12,426 nucleotides of DNA, taken from the IMG/VR virus record IMGVR_UViG_2690316131_000019; one strand, 5' to 3'. Within the stretch, counting starts at the first letter, position 1. Every line of letters starts with the position of its first letter. The translations under genes and the position numbers were made by a program. Of this stretch, positions 2,556 to 9,338 are shown one piece after another. The notes below the pieces were generated by a model, which worked only from the letters and a program-made list of their open reading frames with translations, did not search any database and was not told the origin of the DNA. The stretch is from a virus (Duplodnaviria; Heunggongvirae; Uroviricota; Caudoviricetes).

Positions 2556-2987
2556 CTATTCAGGTATTTCAATTCCAAAACCATCTGCATCCCATGAGTT
2601 TTCACAGATGATGTAACCTAGTTCATTGAGCTTATTAAATGTTTTTTCAAAGATGATCTGGTAATCATTATCTGCAAGTGATTCCAGTTCAAGGTCATTA
2701 AGGTTTATATAAAAACTTGTATGTCCAAGTGTTATTTTCTTATTAATTTCATTAAAGGTTCTTTTGAAAATAATATTTGATATTTCATGTCGTGCATTGT
2801 TTGCAATGATTTTTGCTTCATAAGCAGAAATTACGTCATCTTCATGAATATCTTTCAGAAAGCTGGTGTCAAGACGTTGTACTATTTCAGCGTTCATTGA
2901 TCGCTTATTGGCTTTTGCAGAAATTTCTATTTTTTCTTTTACTTCGACGGGAAGTCTGATCCTTAGTTGTGGATCTTCTCTGCTCAT
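2556..2987 (-). CDS. mnt: Mnt-like ribbon-helix-helix repressor with an extended C-terminal domain
   Basis: N-terminal segment MSREDPQLRIRLPVEVKEKIEISAKANKRSMNAEIVQRL matches the Arc/Mnt RHH signature (recalled P22 Mnt: DDPHFNFRMPMEVREKLKFRAEANGRSMNSELLQIV). Preferred start is the ATG at 2987, preceded by GGTGAAG; the ORF track extends to 3017. Product is 143 aa, against about 82 aa for P22 Mnt. Confidence 0.65.
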   Translation of the reverse strand: MSREDPQLRIRLPVEVKEKIEISAKANKRSMNAEIVQRLDTSFLKDIHEDDVISAYEAKIIANNARHEISNIIFKRTFNEINKKITLGHTSFYINLNDLELESLADNDYQIIFEKTFNKLNELGYIICENSWDADGFGIEIPE

Positions 2988-3024
2988 GTTCTTCACCAAA
3001 TATTGAGTTACTTGCAATGATTGA

Positions 3025-3072
3025 AGTATGCCTCACCGTGTGCTTGACATCAATGACGCACGGTGTGACAAT
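3025..3072. promoter_or_regulatory. Divergent, overlapping sigma70 promoters (Pant-like on +, Pmnt-like on -) with CACGGTG/CACCGTG operator-like repeats
   Basis: Plus strand: TTGACA (3044-3049), 17-bp spacer, TGT-GACAAT extended -10 (3064-3072). Minus strand: TTGATG (rc of 3048-3053), 17 bp, CATACT (rc of 3025-3030). The 7-mer CACGGTG or its complement occurs at 3034-3040 (inverted), 3060-3066, 3083-3089 and 3288-3294. Confidence 0.45.
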
Positions 3073-3107
3073 TATTTTGCCCCACGGTGGGGCTAAGGAG
3101 ATATGAA

Positions 3108-3275
3108 ATGCAAAAAGCAAAAGAGATGTGTCAACGACGAGTTCGTTTTCCGGACGATGTGAAGTTAGCTATTGAAAGAAATGGCGAAAAAGAATGCCGA
3201 AAGTTCAATACAGAGATTATCTATCAGCTGAGGAAAGTGTATGGACTCACTGGTGAGAAGAATAGCGTGGCATAA
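3108..3275 (+). CDS. arc: Arc-like ribbon-helix-helix repressor
   Basis: 55-codon ORF with AGGAG (3096-3100) 7 nt before the ATG at 3108. Sequence QRRVRFPDDVKLAIERNGEKECRKFNTEIIYQLRKVYG has the Arc-type beta-strand/helix pattern (recalled P22 Arc: FNLRWPREVLDLVRKVAEENGRSVNSEIYQRV). Divergent from the mnt-like gene and directly upstream of the ant-like gene, as in P22 immI. Confidence 0.6.
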   Translation: MQKAKEMCQRRVRFPDDVKLAIERNGEKECRKFNTEIIYQLRKVYGLTGEKNSVA

Positions 3276-3347
3276 AACAGCGAAGCCCCACGGTGGCCAG
3301 ACCGTCAGGGCTTCAGTATCGTAAAACTACGTATAGGAATTAACGAC
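3272..3347 (-). ncRNA. sar: Candidate sar-like antisense RNA covering the ant ribosome-binding site
   Basis: Minus-strand promoter inside the 5' end of ant: TTGATA (rc of 3377-3382), 17-bp spacer, TATACT (rc of 3354-3359), predicting a start near 3347. Minus-strand terminator hairpin (stem 3282-3288 / 3308-3314) followed by GCUGUUUUAU in the arc-ant spacer. Predicted ~75-nt transcript is antisense to the ant SD (AGGAA 3335-3339); by recollection P22 sar is about 69 nt and similarly placed. Confidence 0.4.
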
Positions 3348-4286
3348 ATGACGAGTATAGCAACAGCAGTATCTACTATCAACGTGCCATTCCACGGCGC
3401 AGAGCTTTATGTTGTCAATCACAACGGCGAACCGTATACCCCAATGAAACCTATCGTTGAGGGAATGGGGCTAGACTGGAAATCTCAACATAAGAAGATT
3501 TCTCAACGCTTCTCGAAGGGTATGGTGGAAATCACCATACCTTCTGCCGGTGGGGGGCAAGCCATGATTTGTATGGCTTTACGAAAATTGGCAGCTTGGT
3601 TGAACAGCATCAGCCCTAACAAAGTCCGCCCTGAAATCCGCGACAAGGTAATCCAGTATCAGGAAGAGTGTGACGATGTGCTCTACGAGTACTGGACTAA
3701 AGGCCATGTGGTTAACCCACGCAAAGCTAAAAAGGCGTTGCCGGGTAAAATAACAACTGAACAGCAGGAAGCCATTAAACAACTCGTCATGAGTCGCGGT
3801 CAGTCTCTGCCAAAAGAAAAACAGGCTAAGGCGATGATCACCATGTGGTCGTCACTGAAATCTCATTTTGGCTGTTCGTACAAAGAAATTGGTGAAGATC
3901 AATTTGCCGAAGCGTTGTCTCTTGTTGCTCGGGTTCCGCTTGAAGGGGAGTATCTCCCTGCTGGATCTGCATCAGAGAATGATGAAGTGGCAGTCAAGAT
4001 GTTAGATGCGCTTCGTGAGGCAATTAAAACACAGACAAAATGTTATGGTTATCCATTGAAGCCAGGCTACCGCAGTCTGATTCATTCGCCGTCGGGTGTT
4101 CTCGGCCTGACGGAGAACTCACTGCTGATGAATCTGCTGAACCAGTTACAGGAAGACGGGCACGACGTATCGGGCGCGGCGGCGGAGCTGACCACCATGT
4201 TCTGCTACATCGTCGGTGTGAGCAAATGCCTGCGTGATATCCAGACGCACGCGGAGTACATCAACGACAAGGCTGGGTTCTTCTGA
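3348..4286 (+). CDS. ant: Phage antirepressor (P22 Ant-like: N-terminal Ant domain plus conserved C-terminal module)
   Basis: 312-codon ORF with AGGAA SD 8 nt upstream of the ATG. N-terminus (SIATAVSTINVPFHGAELYVVNHNGEPYTPMKPIVEGMGLDW) resembles P22 Ant-type antirepressor N-domains. Lies downstream of arc as in P22. The C-terminal ~78 aa are nearly identical to the C-terminus of the 5460..6170 product. Confidence 0.7.
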   Translation: MTSIATAVSTINVPFHGAELYVVNHNGEPYTPMKPIVEGMGLDWKSQHKKISQRFSKGMVEITIPSAGGGQAMICMALRKLAAWLNSISPNKVRPEIRDKVIQYQEECDDVLYEYWTKGHVVNPRKAKKALPGKITTEQQEAIKQLVMSRGQSLPKEKQAKAMITMWSSLKSHFGCSYKEIGEDQFAEALSLVARVPLEGEYLPAGSASENDEVAVKMLDALREAIKTQTKCYGYPLKPGYRSLIHSPSGVLGLTENSLLMNLLNQLQEDGHDVSGAAAELTTMFCYIVGVSKCLRDIQTHAEYINDKAGFF

Positions 4287-4304
4287 CGGGCGGCGGCACA
4301 GGGA
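4050..4304. repeat. Left arm of a ~255-bp inverted repeat (3' end of ant plus 18 bp past its stop)
   Basis: The reverse complement of 5444..5698 matches 4050..4304 with only a few mismatches by manual alignment, including the stop codon and the downstream TGACGGGCGGCGGCACAG. Confidence 0.85.
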
Positions 4305-4335
4305 CGTGCAAAACGAAACTAGCGTGACATGTCAC

Positions 4336-5312: not shown

Positions 5313-5443
5313 GACATTACCTCATATCTCATAAGTTCATTACACGGATTAATAAAAATGAAACCAATCCGTTTACCCTTGAGGTAATAGTACGCTATTC
5401 ACCCACAGTCTGCAATCTGTACAGAATTATTTAAAGGCACATC

Positions 5444-5698
5444 TCTGTGCCGCCGCCCGTCAGAAGAATCCTGCTTTGTCGTTGATGTACTCCGCGTGCG
5501 TCTGGATATCACGCAGGCATTTGCTCACACCGACGATGTAGCAGAACATGGTGGTCAGTTCCGCCGCCGCGCCCGATACGTCGTGCCCGTCGTCCTGTAA
5601 CTGGTTCAGCAGATTCATCAGCAGTGAGTTCTCCGTCAGGCCGAGAACACCAGACGGCGAGTGAATCAGGCTGCGGTAGCCGGGCTTCAGTGGGGCAC
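5444..5698. repeat. Right arm of the ~255-bp inverted repeat (3' end of the Bro-N antirepressor gene plus 16-18 bp past its stop)
   Basis: Reverse complement aligns with 4050..4304 at roughly 95% or better identity by eye. Confidence 0.85.
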
Positions 5699-6170
5699 TG
5701 TAGGTTTTGTTCTCTATCTTCATTGCCTGTATTACTGCTGACGCCGTGGCGTTGGCTACCTGGTCGGCAACCATCTTTATGCGTTCTTCCTGCGGGAGCG
5801 AGTTTTTAATGTAACTTCCGGTGCGGCGGATCTGAGGAAGAACCTCACCTGTAACCCATTTACGAAAGCGGTAGGGGATAGTGCCTGGTGTCACCGCATC
5901 GCGGCAGCGGAGGATCAGTGTGTAGAGGCCTGACTCGGAGATGATGTTGATCTCTTTTACTCGGCTGTCAAAAATTGCACGATGTTCATGCCCTATGTTG
6001 AACATAGACCTTTCATCATCATCCAGTTTTTCAAGTGATTGGGTGACGTTTTGGATACGCAGCGCACTACAAACGTCTTGGGCTACAAACCATGGTTGGC
6101 CATCGATAATGATGGAACGGATAGGGTTAACAGATTCAAATTTGAAGATGGCAGTTTGAGCATTAGCCAT
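5460..6170 (-). CDS. Antirepressor with Bro-N-type N-terminal domain and the shared Ant C-terminal module
   Basis: 236-codon ORF from the ATG at 6170, with GGAG 9 nt upstream; the ORF track extends to a GTG at 6185. N-terminus FKFESVNPIRSIIIDGQPWFVAQDVCSALRIQNVTQSLEKLDDDER is a typical Bro-N / phage antirepressor N-domain. The C-terminal 78 aa match the ant C-terminus. Confidence 0.7.
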   Translation of the reverse strand: MANAQTAIFKFESVNPIRSIIIDGQPWFVAQDVCSALRIQNVTQSLEKLDDDERSMFNIGHEHRAIFDSRVKEINIISESGLYTLILRCRDAVTPGTIPYRFRKWVTGEVLPQIRRTGSYIKNSLPQEERIKMVADQVANATASAVIQAMKIENKTYSAPLKPGYRSLIHSPSGVLGLTENSLLMNLLNQLQDDGHDVSGAAAELTTMFCYIVGVSKCLRDIQTHAEYINDKAGFF

Positions 6171-6321
6171 GGTGGTTATCTCCACTTAGTGATTTTAATC
6201 ACCACCGCAACGCCAATTACTGGTGGTGAACTGGACAAGGTTGGCGTACCGGCCTAAGTGGTACCGGCGTCCTTTCGGACCCCTGCCCAGCCCACCATAA
6301 TTCGGATATGGCTGTGCTTAA

Positions 6322-6354
6322 CGCATAAAAAAACCACGTCTGGCGTGGTATGCG
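6322..6354 (-). terminator. Rho-independent terminator for minus-strand transcription from the LexA-controlled gene
   Basis: On the minus strand: stem CCACG, loop CCAGA, stem CGTGG (6334-6348), followed by UUUUUUU (6327-6333). An outer CGCAT/ATGCG pairing (6322-6326 / 6350-6354) is also possible. Confidence 0.5.
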
Positions 6355-6485
6355 CCACTTAGTAACTCGGGACGCCAATCCCGGCACTGGATTTTGCCAG
6401 TACCCGATTACTATGGCACAAGAGGAGTGCGATGTAAATTTACCTCAAAGGTAAATATAAGCACTCCACTTGGTAATTGCAAACC

Positions 6486-6743
6486 TTATCTGGTTTGTTT
6501 TCGTAATTGTTCGGCACAATAGTCGAGATGTGTTTGCAGATCCTGCATAGACATCTGTGAGCTGGTGACGTAGTTAATCAGTGCAGTCAGTTCGGCAAGT
6601 GGGCCATCGACATTAAATCCATCCTTATCGAGATCCCGGAGTAATTTCATCAAGAGCGATCCCTCCACCAGTGATCTGACGCCTCCCGGCGTGTGAATCC
6701 TTTCGGTAAATCCGTCTTCCAGTGGATAGTGATACTGCTGCAT
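6486..6743 (-). CDS. Small stand-alone antirepressor-like protein (85 aa), a free copy of the Ant C-terminal module
   Basis: ATG at 6743 with GGAGAAG SD. The product (..HTPGGVRSLVEGSLLMKLLRDLDKDGFNVDGPLAELTALINYVTSSQMSMQDLQTHLDY..) aligns with the shared C-terminal module of the two larger antirepressors (HSPSGVLGLTENSLLMNLLNQLQEDGHDVSGAAAELTTMFCYIVGVSKCLRDIQTHAEY) at roughly 40-45% identity by eye. Confidence 0.55.
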   Translation of the reverse strand: MQQYHYPLEDGFTERIHTPGGVRSLVEGSLLMKLLRDLDKDGFNVDGPLAELTALINYVTSSQMSMQDLQTHLDYCAEQLRKQTR

Positions 6744-6762
6744 CTTATCTTCTCCATGCAAT

Positions 6763-6782
6763 AACTGTACAAATATACAGTA
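6763..6782. promoter_or_regulatory. LexA (SOS) box just upstream of the small antirepressor-like gene
   Basis: AACTGTACAAATATACAGTA matches the consensus TACTGT(AT)4ACAGTA; CTGT-N8-ACAG is intact at 6765-6780. It lies about 8 nt upstream of the SD of the minus-strand gene that starts at 6743. Confidence 0.6.
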
Positions 6783-6938
6783 TCAAATAATTTGTTTGCT
6801 ATCCAGCACGTTTTGCAAATCACCTGAAAGGTAATATCTGTGTGTATTGATGATGTTTCTATCCATATATGGTTCATTGGGTAATAAAATAGCCAGATAT
6901 GCGGCGCAACGGGTGCTGCGACTATCTGGAGATTTAGC

Positions 6939-9227
6939 ATGACGGTCTCAACCGAAGTTGACCACAACGAATACACAGGTAACGGTGTTACGACATCATT
7001 TCCGTATACCTTCAGGATTTTCCAGAAATCTGATCTGGTAGTACAAGTGGTTGACCTTGATGAAAATATCACTGTTCTTGCTCTTGATACTGATTACACA
7101 GTTACCGGGGCGGGAGGATATAACGGTGGTAATGTAATTCTGTCGAAGGTGTTGGCTAACGGTTATCTGATTTCTATATATCGAGAGCTACCGGTTACGC
7201 AGGAAACTGATTTGCGTAATCAGGGTAAGTTCTTTGCAGAAGTGCATGAGAACGCTTTTGATAAGCTAACGATGCTGATCCAGCAGGTTCGAAATTGGTT
7301 CAGTCTGGCGCTACGAAAGCCGTCGTTCGTGGCTAATTATTACGACGCGATGAATAACTATATTCGTAATCTTCGTGACCCATCTAGGCCGCAAGATGCA
7401 GCAACGAAAAATTATGTTGACGGGCTTGCAGAAACAAACCTGAGCAGAACGCTACGAACTCCCGAACCGATATCAACTTTGCCCGGCGTTGAGCAACGTA
7501 AGAATAAGATTGTTGCAATGGATGATTCAGGGAACCCACTCATGGTTCTCCCGGAATCAGGTTCTGCATCTGATGTTATGATCGAGTTAGCAAAGCCAAC
7601 AGGGGCTAGTTTGATTAATACTAAAGATGGAGAAAATCTACAACTTAAAATTAATAAAATACCTCCCCTTTATGCTGAGGAGTTTGGTGATCTTACTGGA
7701 TTTGATGTTACTGACATATTTCAACATGCTATTGATACTGCATCTGCTCAATGCCGTGAATTAAGAGTAAGGACGCAAATTATAAATGTTAGGCAACTCA
7801 AACTCCCTAACAATACTATTTTAAATCTAGGCGTTTGTACTTTAAGGCAAATATCTAATACAAATAAGCCATTAATCAGGAATGATGTATTTGGATATGC
7901 GGATAAAGTTCATACAAACTTAAATATTACCATTATTGATGGGATTCTTGATTTTAATGGTTCAAACCAGTCTGACACTACGGCAACAGGAGAAGTTAAT
8001 GTCGGCTGTGCATTTTTTGGGGTGAAAGGCCTTCATTTTCGTGGCTCAACAAAATTCATTAATGCCAGACGTTATAGTTTTTTTGCTGCAAATTGTGCAA
8101 ACATTACTTTTGATGATCCGGTTGTTGAAAACGACCCGGAAATACCAAGTAGTAATAAAGATGGCTTACATTTTTGCGGAAAAATTTACGGTATTTCAAT
8201 AAAAAGTATTTATGTTTATAACCCAGAAGATGATGCACTAGCTATAAATGCTGATGATGTAGATCATGGTGGGGAATGGACTCGCGCTAACATTACTGGA
8301 GCAATAGATAATGTTTGGGTTGGGCAAGTTCGTGTGGATGGTCCTTCATCGCATAACGGTGTGCGTTTGCTAAGTGCGTCCCCCAACACCCCTATTTCAA
8401 ATGTGAAAATTGATTCAATTGTAGGTAAAGTAGATAATTATTTTCTTAATATTCAACCATACGGTTTAGGTACTTCATCGGTATACCACAATATTGATAT
8501 CGGAATTATAGGAGGAATATATTCTGTCAGAACCAATCCTGCATTTACTCATGGCATGGTAAATATCTACACTATGAAGCCGAACCCAGCAGTTTTGAAT
8601 AATATTCATATTGGTCAGATTTTTCGTGATCAGGAAATTGGCGATGGACAGGATCGTCCGACTGTACAGTTATGTGTTGAAAACACTTCTGTTACATTTG
8701 ATAAAATTGTCGAGCAGAATTGTGCTAATGATGCTGTCGTTAGGGTAACGGAGATAGGACCTTCGGCTTTTATAACTCTAAACGAAGCATACAAAAAATC
8801 CACCCGAACCTTAACTCCTGGTGTGTATGGTTCCATCGTAATTGTAAGTAATGTTAACGACAATCAACTTGAACACCTTAAAATTGGATTCAATTCTGCA
8901 GATAGACTACGTCACGTTGTATTGGCAAGGTCTGTAAAAATTAAACGTTTAGATATGTTTAGTGATGGTTCAGCAGACAATATCCCTCTGTATCTTGAAT
9001 CATCCCAGGTAACTAATCTGAATTGGAATAGTAGTGTTACATCCACTTATCAATTTACTGCACACCGCTATACGCTTTCAGGTGAATCGTCTGCTGTAAT
9101 ATTTGAACGCCCTGCTGTTACAGGTGGGAGTACTGCAGAACGTCCAGTAAATGCAATAATTGGTGACAGTTTCTATGATACAACAACGAATACTCGTGTG
9201 AACTGGAATGGTAGTGCTTGGGTTTAA
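6939..9227 (+). CDS. Tailspike / tail fibre protein with conserved N-terminal particle-binding domain and C-terminal beta-helix receptor-binding (probable polysaccharide depolymerase) domain
   Basis: 762-codon ORF with GGAG SD. The N-terminal ~150 aa (EYTGNGVTTSFPYTFRIFQKSDLVVQVVD...DTDYTV) fit the T7 gp17 / epsilon15-type tailspike anchor pattern as recalled. The downstream part is AT-rich with repetitive N/G/I/V-rich segments typical of a right-handed beta-helix. Confidence 0.8.
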   Translation: MTVSTEVDHNEYTGNGVTTSFPYTFRIFQKSDLVVQVVDLDENITVLALDTDYTVTGAGGYNGGNVILSKVLANGYLISIYRELPVTQETDLRNQGKFFAEVHENAFDKLTMLIQQVRNWFSLALRKPSFVANYYDAMNNYIRNLRDPSRPQDAATKNYVDGLAETNLSRTLRTPEPISTLPGVEQRKNKIVAMDDSGNPLMVLPESGSASDVMIELAKPTGASLINTKDGENLQLKINKIPPLYAEEFGDLTGFDVTDIFQHAIDTASAQCRELRVRTQIINVRQLKLPNNTILNLGVCTLRQISNTNKPLIRNDVFGYADKVHTNLNITIIDGILDFNGSNQSDTTATGEVNVGCAFFGVKGLHFRGSTKFINARRYSFFAANCANITFDDPVVENDPEIPSSNKDGLHFCGKIYGISIKSIYVYNPEDDALAINADDVDHGGEWTRANITGAIDNVWVGQVRVDGPSSHNGVRLLSASPNTPISNVKIDSIVGKVDNYFLNIQPYGLGTSSVYHNIDIGIIGGIYSVRTNPAFTHGMVNIYTMKPNPAVLNNIHIGQIFRDQEIGDGQDRPTVQLCVENTSVTFDKIVEQNCANDAVVRVTEIGPSAFITLNEAYKKSTRTLTPGVYGSIVIVSNVNDNQLEHLKIGFNSADRLRHVVLARSVKIKRLDMFSDGSADNIPLYLESSQVTNLNWNSSVTSTYQFTAHRYTLSGESSAVIFERPAVTGGSTAERPVNAIIGDSFYDTTTNTRVNWNGSAWV

Positions 9228-9338
9228 TGTGTAAACAAAATAATCAAGCAAAAAGTGATTGTTAACCATATATGGGTTATTGTGTATGATGAACTTACCA
9301 ATAAGTGGGTTCATCATGCACGTTAAACGGTGGTTTTT

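Follow-up and report, generated by a model that had tools for sequence, protein, structure and literature searches.

A probable C4/IsrK-type RNA control region upstream of the Bro-N antirepressor gene in phiV10-like prophages of E. coli

We propose, with a probability that we put at close to nine in ten, that positions 6182-6485 of a 12,426-nucleotide stretch of viral DNA (hereafter the window) form the minus-strand RNA control region of an antirepressor operon, built like immI of phage P1. As judged from sequence comparison, the motif CCACTTAG that recurs in this region is the pairing loop of a C4-type antisense RNA together with its two target sites, one of which falls on the antirepressor gene's ribosome-binding site. 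The locus represents a known and not a new system, in a copy without annotation that resides in phiV10-like (Uetakevirus) E. coli prophages; the element that carries it is a phiV10-like podophage integrated beside guaA, and the RefSeq and phage GenBank records that we examined leave the stretch blank. The features on which the argument draws are, roughly in the order in which a minus-strand transcript would meet them:

6486-6743, minus strand: orf85, sharing 43% identity with the Bro-N antirepressor's C-terminal domain
6454-6482, minus strand: upstream promoter-like site TTGCAA-17-TATATT of putative function, its -10 and +1 overlapping the operator palindrome
6466-6473, minus strand: CCAAGUGG, imperfect fourth copy of the motif, not a C4 target
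6424-6467, minus strand: hairpin directly after the orf85 stop codon, with the outer stem GGAGUGC/GCACUCC around the operator palindrome
6440-6454, no strand: palindrome TTACC-N5-GGTAA, between and over both promoter-like sites
6410-6438, minus strand: promoter-like site TTTACA-17-CATAGT, its -10 preceded by TG; start predicted near 6403, where the IsrK model has its 5' end
6327-6403, minus strand: IsrK-like leader sRNA (Rfam RF01394), with two hairpins, a linker and an intrinsic terminator, carrying a1 and b1
6372-6378, minus strand: a1 = UUGGCGU, loop of IsrK hairpin 2
6355-6362, minus strand: b1 = CUAAGUGG, unpaired linker just 5' of the terminator
6327-6349, minus strand: intrinsic terminator of the IsrK-like RNA, stem-loop 6349-6333 plus U7, equivalent to the 3' hairpin of the Rfam isrK alignment
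6219-6302, minus strand: C4-type antisense RNA (Rfam RF01695), with a long closing stem, two internal hairpins and a 3' tail ending in CACC-A-CCA
6254-6261, minus strand: b' = CCACUUAG, loop of C4 hairpin 2, which is the inverted copy of the earlier note and switches with b1 and b2 in relatives
6241-6247, minus strand: a' = ACGCCAA, single-stranded segment 3' of C4 hairpin 2, complementary to UUGGCGU at a1 and a2
6210-6216, minus strand: a2 = UUGGCGU, just after C4
6189-6202, minus strand: palindrome GUGAUUAAAAUCAC in the spacer between a2 and b2, a small hairpin in the minimum free energy (MFE) fold, local to this sequence
6182-6189, minus strand: b2 = CUAAGUGG, overlapping the antirepressor Shine-Dalgarno (SD) sequence GGAG (6183-6180) by 2 nt, with the ATG at 6170-6168
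5460-6170, minus strand: Bro-N antirepressor of 236 aa, the regulated gene (Pfam Bro-N, 3.7e-19; PHROG 130 'anti-repressor Ant', 2.9e-55)

Two Rfam models match at full length, adjacent to each other and on the strand of the antirepressor gene: isrK with 63.5 bits (gathering score 50) and C4 with 66.0 bits (gathering score 45, model positions 1-87 of 87, E = 2.6e-11). The c4-a1b1 model RF03163, which overlaps isrK, falls slightly short of its gathering score (43.4 versus 46.7 bits). A small RNA had been one of three options raised in the earlier note, and it is borne out by two RNAs, one an IsrK-like sRNA and the other of the C4 antisense type, each of which exceeds its gathering score; the minus-strand terminator described there is equally real, consisting of the stem-loop and U-tract that end the IsrK-like RNA. 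The MFE fold of 6302-6219 (-43.6 kcal/mol) reproduces the C4 consensus, with a long closing stem around two hairpins and a single-stranded segment after hairpin 2, and this fold is kept when the RNA is folded in a 244-nt context (z = -4.9). Across 64 relatives, all five base pairs of hairpin 1 show compensatory changes. RNAalifold recovered only the two inner hairpins, the MAFFT alignment misplacing the 3' strand of the outer stem, and a crude test found the full three-helix MFE structure in 51 of 84 C4 pattern hits, some of which are probably not C4. The sequence also hints at tRNA-like maturation, in that the closing stem is followed by A-CCA (6224-6221). In P1, c4 is excised from the leader transcript by RNase P as a stable RNA of about 77 nt.

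The motif itself is found exactly on the plus strand at 6182-6189 and 6355-6362, with its reverse complement at 6254-6261, as had been reported from the sequence. From base composition, the 12.4-kb window should hold about 0.36 exact copies, both strands counted, and the 304-nt stretch 0.009, as against three observed within 180 nt, and the clustering is not due to chance. When one mismatch is allowed, the count is unremarkable (8 observed versus 6.9 expected), and the imperfect fourth copy CCACTTGG, at 6466-6473 on the plus strand, therefore has no statistical weight of its own. As a C4 target this fourth copy was rejected: it is unchanged in L016 and phiV10, whose loops differ, and its duplex with C4 (-12.4 kcal/mol) does not differ from that of shuffled sequences (-9.7 +/- 3.1 kcal/mol). 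A second triplet, which the earlier note had missed, consists of ACGCCAA on the plus strand at 6210 and 6372 and TTGGCGT on the same strand at 6241.

The two triplets provide a C4 RNA with matching surfaces on either side of itself. The segment a' (6247-6241) pairs with a1 (6378-6372) and with a2 (6216-6210), and the loop b' (6261-6254) pairs with b1 (6362-6355) and with b2 (6189-6182), the last of these on an SD located 9 nt before the ATG. The duplex of C4 with a1 and b1 has a predicted energy of -33.7 kcal/mol, compared with -20.5 +/- 3.7 for shuffled targets, and that with a2 and b2 -30.3 kcal/mol, compared with -17.3 +/- 3.6; both lie about 3.5 standard deviations below the shuffled targets. 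The palindrome in the spacer between a2 and b2 had been described as GTGATT-T-AATCAC at 6190-6202; it does exist, but with a 2-nt spacer and one base further out, as GTGATT-TT-AATCAC at 6189-6202. As a conserved spacer hairpin it was discarded, being absent from phiV10 and L016, and hairpins in this spacer are not a feature of the family (mean z of -0.25 over 55 loci, with no family-wide excess of structure).

Covariation across homologues had been suggested as a check, and we find that the loop and both of its targets covary, in near-identical prophages as well as family-wide. Among the near-identical prophages, the b loop and its target read CCACUUAG/CUAAGUGG in the window, CCUACUAG/CUAGUAGG in L016 and CCUUUUAG/CUAAAAGG in phiV10. 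The a target and a' come in two variants among relatives, UUGGCGU/ACGCCAA and UUGGUCU/AGACCAA, with a1, a2 and a' switching together, and the two segments are reassorted independently, EcPF40 combining the b of the window with the other a. In a wider set of 100 viral loci with about 90 different loops, a complement of at least 7 nt to the locus's own loop is present upstream in 63% and downstream in 77%, compared with about 5% when the loops of other loci are used as a control, and these sites lie at fixed distances (approximately 95-105 nt upstream and 48-57 nt downstream). TTGGC precedes b1 by 7-12 nt in 48 of 51 loci (background 5%) and b2 by 12-32 nt in 58 of 63 (background 6%). Directly after b2, an SD and start codon (GGAG plus ATG) follow in 57 of 63 loci, and the genes behind b2 are of antirepressor type (Rha, Bro-N, KilA-N, P22_AR) or small leader ORFs. 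Wobble-compatible substitutions (50 versus 18 at b1, 56 versus 24 at b2) point in the direction of RNA pairing but are confounded by the SD consensus and carry little weight.

Upstream of the RNA genes, the promoter-like site at 6438-6410 has a -10 and an upstream TG that are identical in all eight aligned relatives, and a -35 that is kept in seven, phiV10 having a 3-nt deletion there. The second, upstream promoter-like site retains the TTG of its -35 and the TAT of its -10 in relatives with a different upstream flank. The palindrome that lies between and over these two sites had escaped the earlier note as a recurring operator-like sequence. In the 13E0780 prophage, which is 97% identical to the window over the aligned ~10.5 kb of 12.4 kb, TTACC-N5-GGTAA (with at most one mismatch) occurs at 16 sites, compared with 0.86 expected, and none of 100 shuffles reaches 16; two of the sites fall in the interval that separates the repressor gene from the cro-like gene, and two more just past the repressor gene. 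Within the window itself there are three (5373, 6440 and 6820), and among eight relatives the half-sites of the operator palindrome are invariant and its spacer variable. These patterns make it most likely that the main CI-like repressor of the prophage has one of its operators in the palindrome at 6440-6454, so that the RNA module would be under protein control as well; as an alternative, the palindrome may act as an RNA or DNA hairpin. The 7-bp stem reported around it, GGAGTGC (6424-6430) with GCACTCC (6461-6467), was correctly identified, and as RNA the hairpin 6424-6467 is stable (-24.8 kcal/mol, z = -3.5). We do not regard the outer stem as a conserved RNA element, its 5' arm being lost wherever orf85 is absent, nor the hairpin as a canonical terminator, as it has no U-tract.

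A different view of the motif, and one that the earlier note had put forward, is that the CCACTTAG copies are DNA operators for a phage protein, with two direct copies and one inverted copy bracketing the promoter region of the antirepressor. The three-way covariation by itself would also fit a protein operator of changing specificity, as three exact, clustered copies that change together in relatives are what a change in protein specificity would produce, and a genuine operator-like palindrome lies nearby. However, we prefer RNA pairing because the inverted copy falls precisely on the loop of a covariation-supported hairpin inside the 66-bit C4 match, because b2 runs into the SD (the downstream copy does so in more than 90% of loci, which suits control of translation and not of transcription), and because related systems provide experimental precedent. 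The diversity of about 90 different loops, the occurrence of different motifs between near-identical flanking genes with no evident co-varying DNA-binding protein, and the restriction of the motif to this one place in the window, compared with the 16 occurrences of the real operator motif across the related prophage, also argue against such operators, which we consider highly improbable. What stands of the suggestion is a probable protein operator in this stretch, at the inner palindrome instead of at the motif copies, which are RNA-RNA pairing sites.

Another of the options raised before, which we consider very unlikely, is that the stretch holds no RNA genes of its own and serves the LexA-controlled orf85 only as a structured 3' UTR with its terminator. 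Read-through from the LexA-controlled promoter would indeed turn the whole stretch into 3' UTR, and a stable hairpin (-24.8 kcal/mol, z = -3.5) stands right at the stop codon with an intrinsic terminator about 140 nt further on; yet the operator, promoter-like site, IsrK, C4, a2/b2 and antirepressor occur together in the absence of orf85 and behind unrelated upstream DNA in AST20, MINF9A and L085b, where the hairpin has lost its 5' arm, and the conserved -10 (TG-n-CATAGT in 8/8 relatives) and -35 (TTTACA in 7/8) predict a +1 that coincides with base 1 of the Rfam IsrK model. At most the hairpin directly after the stop codon may belong to a 3' UTR of orf85, and the RNA module has conserved promoter-like sites of its own, also in prophages that lack the upstream gene. 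The least probable explanation, bordering on the negligible, is that the region encodes a small protein from a 56-aa ORF (6387-6217), an open frame that does exist and whose equivalent was flagged by other annotators (the phiV10 record reads 'similar to hypothetical protein SF0880'), but that RefSeq leaves uncalled. Its GTG start lies inside an IsrK hairpin, and the frame then crosses both the intrinsic terminator and all of C4. Within the frame, indels of lengths not divisible by three separate close relatives (e.g. GGGG--TCC versus GGGGCACC), and the variation tracks base-pair covariation and not codon structure.

For the RNA control region that we favor, the demonstrated part of the mechanism consists of the Rfam matches, the complementarities and the three-way covariation; promoter use, transcript ends, processing, repression and decoy action are inferred. 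Transcription would start near 6403 from the promoter at 6438-6410, and the intrinsic terminator (6349-6327) would stop most transcripts to give an IsrK-like sRNA of about 77 nt that exposes a1 (UUGGCGU) and b1 (CUAAGUGG). Read-through transcripts would contain the tRNA-like C4 RNA (6302-6219), probably cut out as in P1 and displaying a' (ACGCCAA) and b' (CCACUUAG), and would continue into a2 and b2, the latter over the SD of the Bro-N antirepressor. If P1 and P7 are a guide, pairing of C4 with a2 and b2 would block ribosome binding, and no antirepressor would be made in the lysogen. The leader sites a1 and b1 would compete with a2 and b2 for the same C4 surfaces, such that an excess of the IsrK-like RNA may titrate C4 and turn on antirepressor translation, as measured for Gifsy-1 IsrK. 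Pairing with the nascent leader may in addition favor termination, as in P4 and N15.

A C4/IsrK module of this kind would explain how a Bro-N antirepressor gene can sit in a lysogen without inducing it, and from it one can predict which related prophages would not respond to one another's control RNAs. Overexpression of ORF4 (Bro-N) of the related phage ZX5 drove lysogens towards lysis in a study that makes no mention of control by RNA (PMC9782041); it is the sole experimental paper on the antirepressor of these phages that we found. Among 5,426 complete E. coli genomes, 455 contain similar DNA, as do 244 phage records, most of which come from Shiga-toxin-converting phages. Because the element is common, its correct annotation bears on prophage induction in pathogenic E. 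coli, even though the locus reveals no new principle.

It is possible, though we consider it doubtful, that the locus constitutes a three-input gate for prophage induction, undescribed for phiV10/epsilon15-like phages, which would combine the repressor operator, the LexA-controlled orf85 and a reassorted RNA code. The main-repressor operator would lie over the +1 of one promoter and be centered at approximately -44 of the IsrK/C4 promoter, where bound repressor could block upstream read-in and might spare or even stimulate synthesis of the anti-antirepressor RNAs. LexA would control orf85, a free-standing copy of the antirepressor C-terminal domain, through the LexA box at 6765-6780 ahead of this gene; searches of Pfam and NCBIfam with orf85 returned nothing useful, and PHROGs only a family of unknown function shared with the C-terminus of Ant. 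The two-segment (a, b) RNA code would be the third input, reassorted among otherwise near-identical E. coli prophages. If this is true, the code would give rise to numerous immunity types that are blind to one another, and the short IsrK-like RNA would set the threshold by acting as a decoy.

The closest known system is immI of P1 and P7 (c4, icd, ant1/2). P1 has two promoters, P51a and P51b, one of them controlled by C1 through Op51, and its c4 is matured by RNase P. As in the present locus, where processing is predicted, a processed and structured RNA derives from the leader of the antirepressor operon, and c4 and the RNA described here belong to the same Rfam family. In both, a' and b' are complementary to a1/b1 upstream and a2/b2 downstream, with the downstream pair on a ribosome-binding site, and specificity variants differ only at the pairing sites, as in the heteroimmunity of P1 and P7. 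The operon is also under the main repressor (for P1 see PMC8201110), which the operator palindrome predicts for the present one. P1 differs in that its b2 lies on the leader gene icd, coupled to ant, whereas that of the present locus is placed on the SD of the antirepressor gene itself; in that its operators are of the C1 type, compared with the lambdoid TTACC-N5-GGTAA type here; and in that it is a plasmid prophage and not a phiV10-like podophage next to guaA. For immI of P1 and P7 see Citron & Schuster 1990 and 1992, as cited in PMC8546580 and PMC3632133; synthesis of Ant is repressed by c4 of P1 (PMC8546580).

The isrK-STnc1160/orf45-anrP operon of Gifsy-1 in Salmonella shares with the window an IsrK sRNA that has a promoter to itself and ends at a leaky terminator (predicted signals in our case), followed by a processed RNA with complementarity to IsrK (its processing likewise predicted here) and an antirepressor-like gene. 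In Gifsy-1, IsrK supplied in trans raised translation of anrP 139-fold (Hershko-Shalev et al. 2016, PMC4825925), and IsrK is followed downstream by a processed RNA, STnc1160; this IsrK is also the only one known to bind Hfq and to activate antirepressor translation in trans (PMC4825925). Activation there proceeds via translation of a 45-codon ORF (orf45) coupled to anrP, whereas in the present locus no ORF reaches the start of ant, the longest ORF across C4 ending 46 nt before the ATG. There is no coupled leader ORF like icd of P1 or orf45 of Gifsy-1, and therefore the Gifsy-1 mechanism is not transferable step by step. The two loci also differ upstream, where isrK is preceded by the AntQ antiterminator and the present RNA module by a LexA-controlled paralogue of the Ant C-terminal domain. 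IsrK and C4 have been recognized as structural homologues of seqA and CI of P4, with similar systems in P1, P7 and N15 (PMC3632133). In the seqA-CI RNA-seqC system of P4 and the CA RNA-antA/B/C system of N15 (Ravin et al. 1999, as summarized in PMC3632133 and PMC4825925), a small processed RNA likewise pairs on both sides of itself in its own transcript, but the outcome reported in those summaries is premature termination of transcription, whereas the location of the downstream site on the SD points here primarily to translational occlusion. The sar RNA of P22 immI is an antisense RNA that limits antirepressor synthesis, as C4 is predicted to do here, and a sar Rfam match is present in the same window, adjoining a P22-type ant gene; sar is, however, a true cis-antisense transcript from the opposite strand, whereas C4 is encoded on the strand of its own target and acts through short loop complementarity.

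The repeated motif in the stretch 6182-6485 is an RNA pairing code. CCACTTAG is found by a search of the window exactly on the plus strand at 6182 and 6355 and as its reverse complement at 6254, so that the direct and inverted copies recorded in the earlier note are present, with three copies within 180 nt against approximately 0.36 exact matches expected from base composition for the whole window and both strands. The functional parts all read from the minus strand, as do both flanking genes. An Rfam scan of the window returned two adjacent full-length matches above the curated thresholds, isrK and C4 antisense RNA, which bears out the small RNA that had been listed among three options; the narrower model RF03163 ('a1, b1 targets of C4') aligns at 6416-6364 with 43.4 bits, just below its threshold of 46.7. 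The C4 recognition segments a' and b' and their targets are named after P1 usage.

Features of the module and its surroundings (window coordinates; pairing segments in RNA sense)
6765-6780, LexA box CTGT-N8-ACAG ahead of orf85
6743-6486, minus strand, orf85, upstream gene of 85 aa, behind the LexA box
6482-6454, minus strand, promoter-like TTGCAA-17-TATATT, with -10 and start region overlapping the putative operator
6440-6454, inner palindrome TTACC-TCAAA-GGTAA, one member of a recurring set
6438-6410, minus strand, promoter-like TTTACA-17-CATAGT with TG upstream, predicted start near 6403, where the IsrK model begins
6403-6327, minus strand, isrK (RF01394), 63.5 bits against a threshold of 50
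6378-6372, a1, UUGGCGU, complementary to a', loop of IsrK hairpin 2
6362-6355, b1, CUAAGUGG, complement of b', unpaired linker of the IsrK-like RNA just 5' of the terminator
6302-6219, minus strand, C4 antisense RNA (RF01695), 66.0 bits against a threshold of 45
6261-6254, b', CCACUUAG, loop of C4 hairpin 2
6247-6241, a', ACGCCAA, single-stranded segment 3' of C4 hairpin 2
6216-6210, a2, UUGGCGU, complementary to a', directly after C4
6189-6182, b2, CUAAGUGG, complement of b', overlapping the Shine-Dalgarno GGAG by two bases
6170-5460, minus strand, Bro-N antirepressor gene directly downstream (Pfam 3.7e-19; PHROG 'anti-repressor Ant' 2.9e-55)

The Shine-Dalgarno GGAG that b2 overlaps occupies 6183-6180, 9 nt ahead of the antirepressor ATG. 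Targets run a then b and C4 runs b' then a', the order that antiparallel pairing requires, and the predicted duplexes reach -33.7 kcal/mol for C4:a1b1 (shuffled targets, -20.5 +/- 3.7) and -30.3 kcal/mol for C4:a2b2 (-17.3 +/- 3.6). On its own, C4 adopts the fold typical of the family (-43.6 kcal/mol) and retains it in a 244-nt context (z = -4.9) in which b1 is unpaired and a1 lies inside a hairpin loop. The second triplet (a', a1, a2) had been missed by the earlier note, while its minus-strand terminator is confirmed as a stem-loop at 6349-6333 followed by U7. A further pairing is seen in the 244-nt fold (6353-6320), between GCGCAUA ahead of the terminator stem and UAUGCGU beyond the U-tract; in transcripts that read through, it would lengthen the terminator hairpin over the U-run. 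Relatives conserve the flanking bases.

Covariation across homologues had been proposed as a check, and loop and targets do switch as sets, both in relatives and family-wide. When the window is aligned with phiV10, the viral contig L016 and four prophages of E. coli, very little differs in the background, yet the pairing sites change together.

Pairing sites of the b set in close relatives
Window: b' CCACUUAG; b1 / b2 CUAAGUGG / CUAAGUGG
L016: b' CCUACUAG; b1 / b2 CUAGUAGG / CUAGUAG
phiV10, ECJXMCRH7 and AST20: b' CCUUUUAG; b1 / b2 CUAAAAGG / CUAAAAGG
MINF_9A: b' CCUUUGUAG; b1 / b2 CUACAGAGG / CUACAAAGG

The single b1 difference in MINF_9A yields a G-U pair. The a set changes from UUGGCGU/ACGCCAA to UUGGUCU/AGACCAA in EcPF40 and MINF_9A, and EcPF40 combines the window's b with the alternative a, so that a and b segments reassort independently. 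The further copy reported at 6466 exists as the imperfect CCACTTGG; with one mismatch allowed, 8 copies are found against 6.9 expected, which is ordinary and leaves this copy without support of its own. As a C4 target we rejected it, since 6466-6473 still reads CCAAGUGG in L016 and phiV10 despite their different loops and its predicted duplex is no stronger than those of shuffled sequences.

A search of IMG/VR with hairpin 2 and the conserved GCCAACC as pattern matched at least 120 stretches, with approximately 90 different loop sequences among the matches listed. For 100 non-redundant loci among these listed matches, a complement of at least 7 nt to the locus's own loop occurs upstream in 63 (5.6% with loops of other loci) and downstream in 77 (4.7%); measured from hairpin 2, the sites lie approximately 95-105 nt away on the upstream side and 48-57 nt away on the downstream side. 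Likewise among the listed matches, a Shine-Dalgarno and start codon directly continue the downstream site in 57/63 loci, and TTGGC stands 7-12 nt ahead of b1 in 48/51 and 12-32 nt ahead of b2 in 58/63, against a background of 5-6%. C4 scored above threshold in all 16 of these loci scanned with Rfam, and isrK or c4-a1b1 in several; the first gene 3' of b2, in 48 cases, is Rha (9), Bro-N (7), P22-antirepressor-type (3), KilA-N (2) or otherwise a small ORF. The window thus has the family's standard layout.

These patterns bear on the other explanations of the stretch. That it is merely the 3' UTR of orf85, as had been suggested, is very unlikely, because the module also occurs without orf85 and there keeps its own promoter-like site. 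Protein operators at the CCACTTAG copies, also suggested earlier, are a fainter prospect still: the motif sits in a hairpin loop, its downstream copy is fused to the Shine-Dalgarno, approximately 90 specificities (among the matches listed) have no evident co-varying protein, and the motif is absent elsewhere in the window. Least probable of the three is a small protein from the ORF 6387-6217, which spans the terminator and carries non-triplet indels in relatives, with variation that tracks base pairs.

The inner palindrome at 6440-6454 is likely an operator of the prophage's main repressor. The closest complete-genome relative, a prophage of E. coli 13E0780 between guaA and yfgI, is 100% identical to the window over 6150-6500 and 94-97% elsewhere where aligned; it contains 16 sites of TTACC-N5-GGTAA with at most one mismatch (0.86 expected), two of them between the CI-like repressor and cro-like genes and two just past the repressor gene. 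In eight relatives the half-sites of 6440-6454 are invariant and the spacer variable. Promoter-like sites lie on either side, and the palindrome is centred near -44 relative to that at 6438-6410, whose -10 is identical in 8/8 relatives and whose -35 hexamer is changed in phiV10 only (3-nt deletion). Similar sites occur at 5373-5387 (TTACC-CTTGA-GGTAA), between the Bro-N gene and the minus-strand ORF that follows it (5312-5133), and at 6820-6834 (TCACC-TGAAA-GGTAA), upstream of the LexA-box promoter region; in 13E0780 the latter keeps its half-sites with a different spacer. The left part of the window matches 13E0780 at 97% identity and the right part at 94%, and most of the tailspike gene (6939-9227) has no match (region 7421-9262), as expected for a swapped receptor-binding domain.

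Two further structures had been noticed. The 7-bp stem GGAGTGC (6424-6430)/GCACTCC (6461-6467) is real and, immediately past the stop codon of orf85, forms a stable hairpin (-24.8 kcal/mol, z -3.5); it has no U-tract, its 5' arm is missing in relatives without orf85, and it may be incidental or else protect the end of the orf85 mRNA. The palindrome beside the Shine-Dalgarno exists as GTGATT-TT-AATCAC, at 6189-6202, one base from where it had been placed, and in the 244-nt context forms a small hairpin between a2 and b2; it is not kept in phiV10 and L016, and spacer hairpins are no family trait. A G-rich run is frequent in these spacers (6209-6201 in the window, GCGGUGGUG; many loci) and resembles the 5' strand of the C4 closing stem; with the C4 3' strand (CACCACC) it could form an alternative structure in the unprocessed transcript.

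Orf85 (region 6486-6780) shares 43% identity over 74 aa with residues 155-228 of the Bro-N antirepressor, with both proteins matching PHROG 450. It appears to be a free-standing copy of the antirepressor C-terminal domain under SOS control, and is possibly a small antirepressor itself. Of two places on the IMG/VR contig L085 (3157-3443 and 6743-6318), one has the complete operator-IsrK-C4-ant module, and the second has orf85 and the promoter region but stops 27 nt into IsrK. This one contig suggests that orf85 can be separated from the module, with recombination at the 5' end of IsrK.

A second antirepressor module, P22-type, lies 2 kb away at 2556-4286:
2556-3017, minus strand, Arc/Mnt-like gene
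3087-3275, plus strand, small ORF
3346-3279, minus strand, sar antisense RNA match, 44.8 bits against 43
3348-4286, plus strand, P22_AR_N antirepressor

The prophage hence has two antirepressors, each with its own, different kind of antisense RNA. Their genes have nearly the same C-terminal coding region, and a 292-nt inverted repeat (arms 4018-4309 and 5437-5728, 91% complementary) encloses 1.1 kb that include a YafO-family toxin gene along with small ORFs, which makes it seem possible that the two arms recombine or drive an inversion.

Among 5,426 complete E. coli genomes, 455 contain similar DNA, as do 244 phage records, the majority of them from Stx-converting phages. What is new is modest, namely this instance: RefSeq leaves it without annotation, and so does the phiV10 record, where just a 'putative terminator' and a spurious ORF similarity are listed. 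Nor does the experimental work on the Bro-N antirepressor of ZX5, a related phage, mention an RNA layer (PMC9782041). The kind is well known from P1/P7 c4, P4 seqA-CI-seqC, N15 CA RNA and Gifsy-1 IsrK-STnc1160, and IsrK-C4 pairs in lambdoid prophages were recorded in 2013 (PMC3632133).

The analysis itself shows the two RNA family matches, the complementarities with their place on the Shine-Dalgarno, and the covariation; how the module works is drawn from published relatives. By analogy with P1/P7, C4 would be excised from read-through transcripts and pair with a2/b2, blocking ribosome binding, so that no antirepressor would be made in the lysogen; this is the P1/P7 mechanism for which Citron and Schuster are cited in PMC3632133 and PMC8546580 (see also PMC12197685). 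As in published relatives, a1/b1 on an abundant short IsrK-like RNA would vie for the same C4 surfaces, and an excess of that RNA should therefore turn translation on. In Gifsy-1, IsrK in trans raises anrP translation 139-fold, and it is followed downstream by STnc1160, a processed RNA with complementarity in common with it (PMC4825925). In P4, pairing of this kind leads to premature termination (PMC4825925), and a structurally similar system is reported in N15 (PMC3632133); since b1 is directly ahead of the terminator, termination may contribute here as well. Unlike in P1 and Gifsy-1, no leader ORF in the window extends to the antirepressor start, and control would be exerted at the antirepressor's own Shine-Dalgarno.
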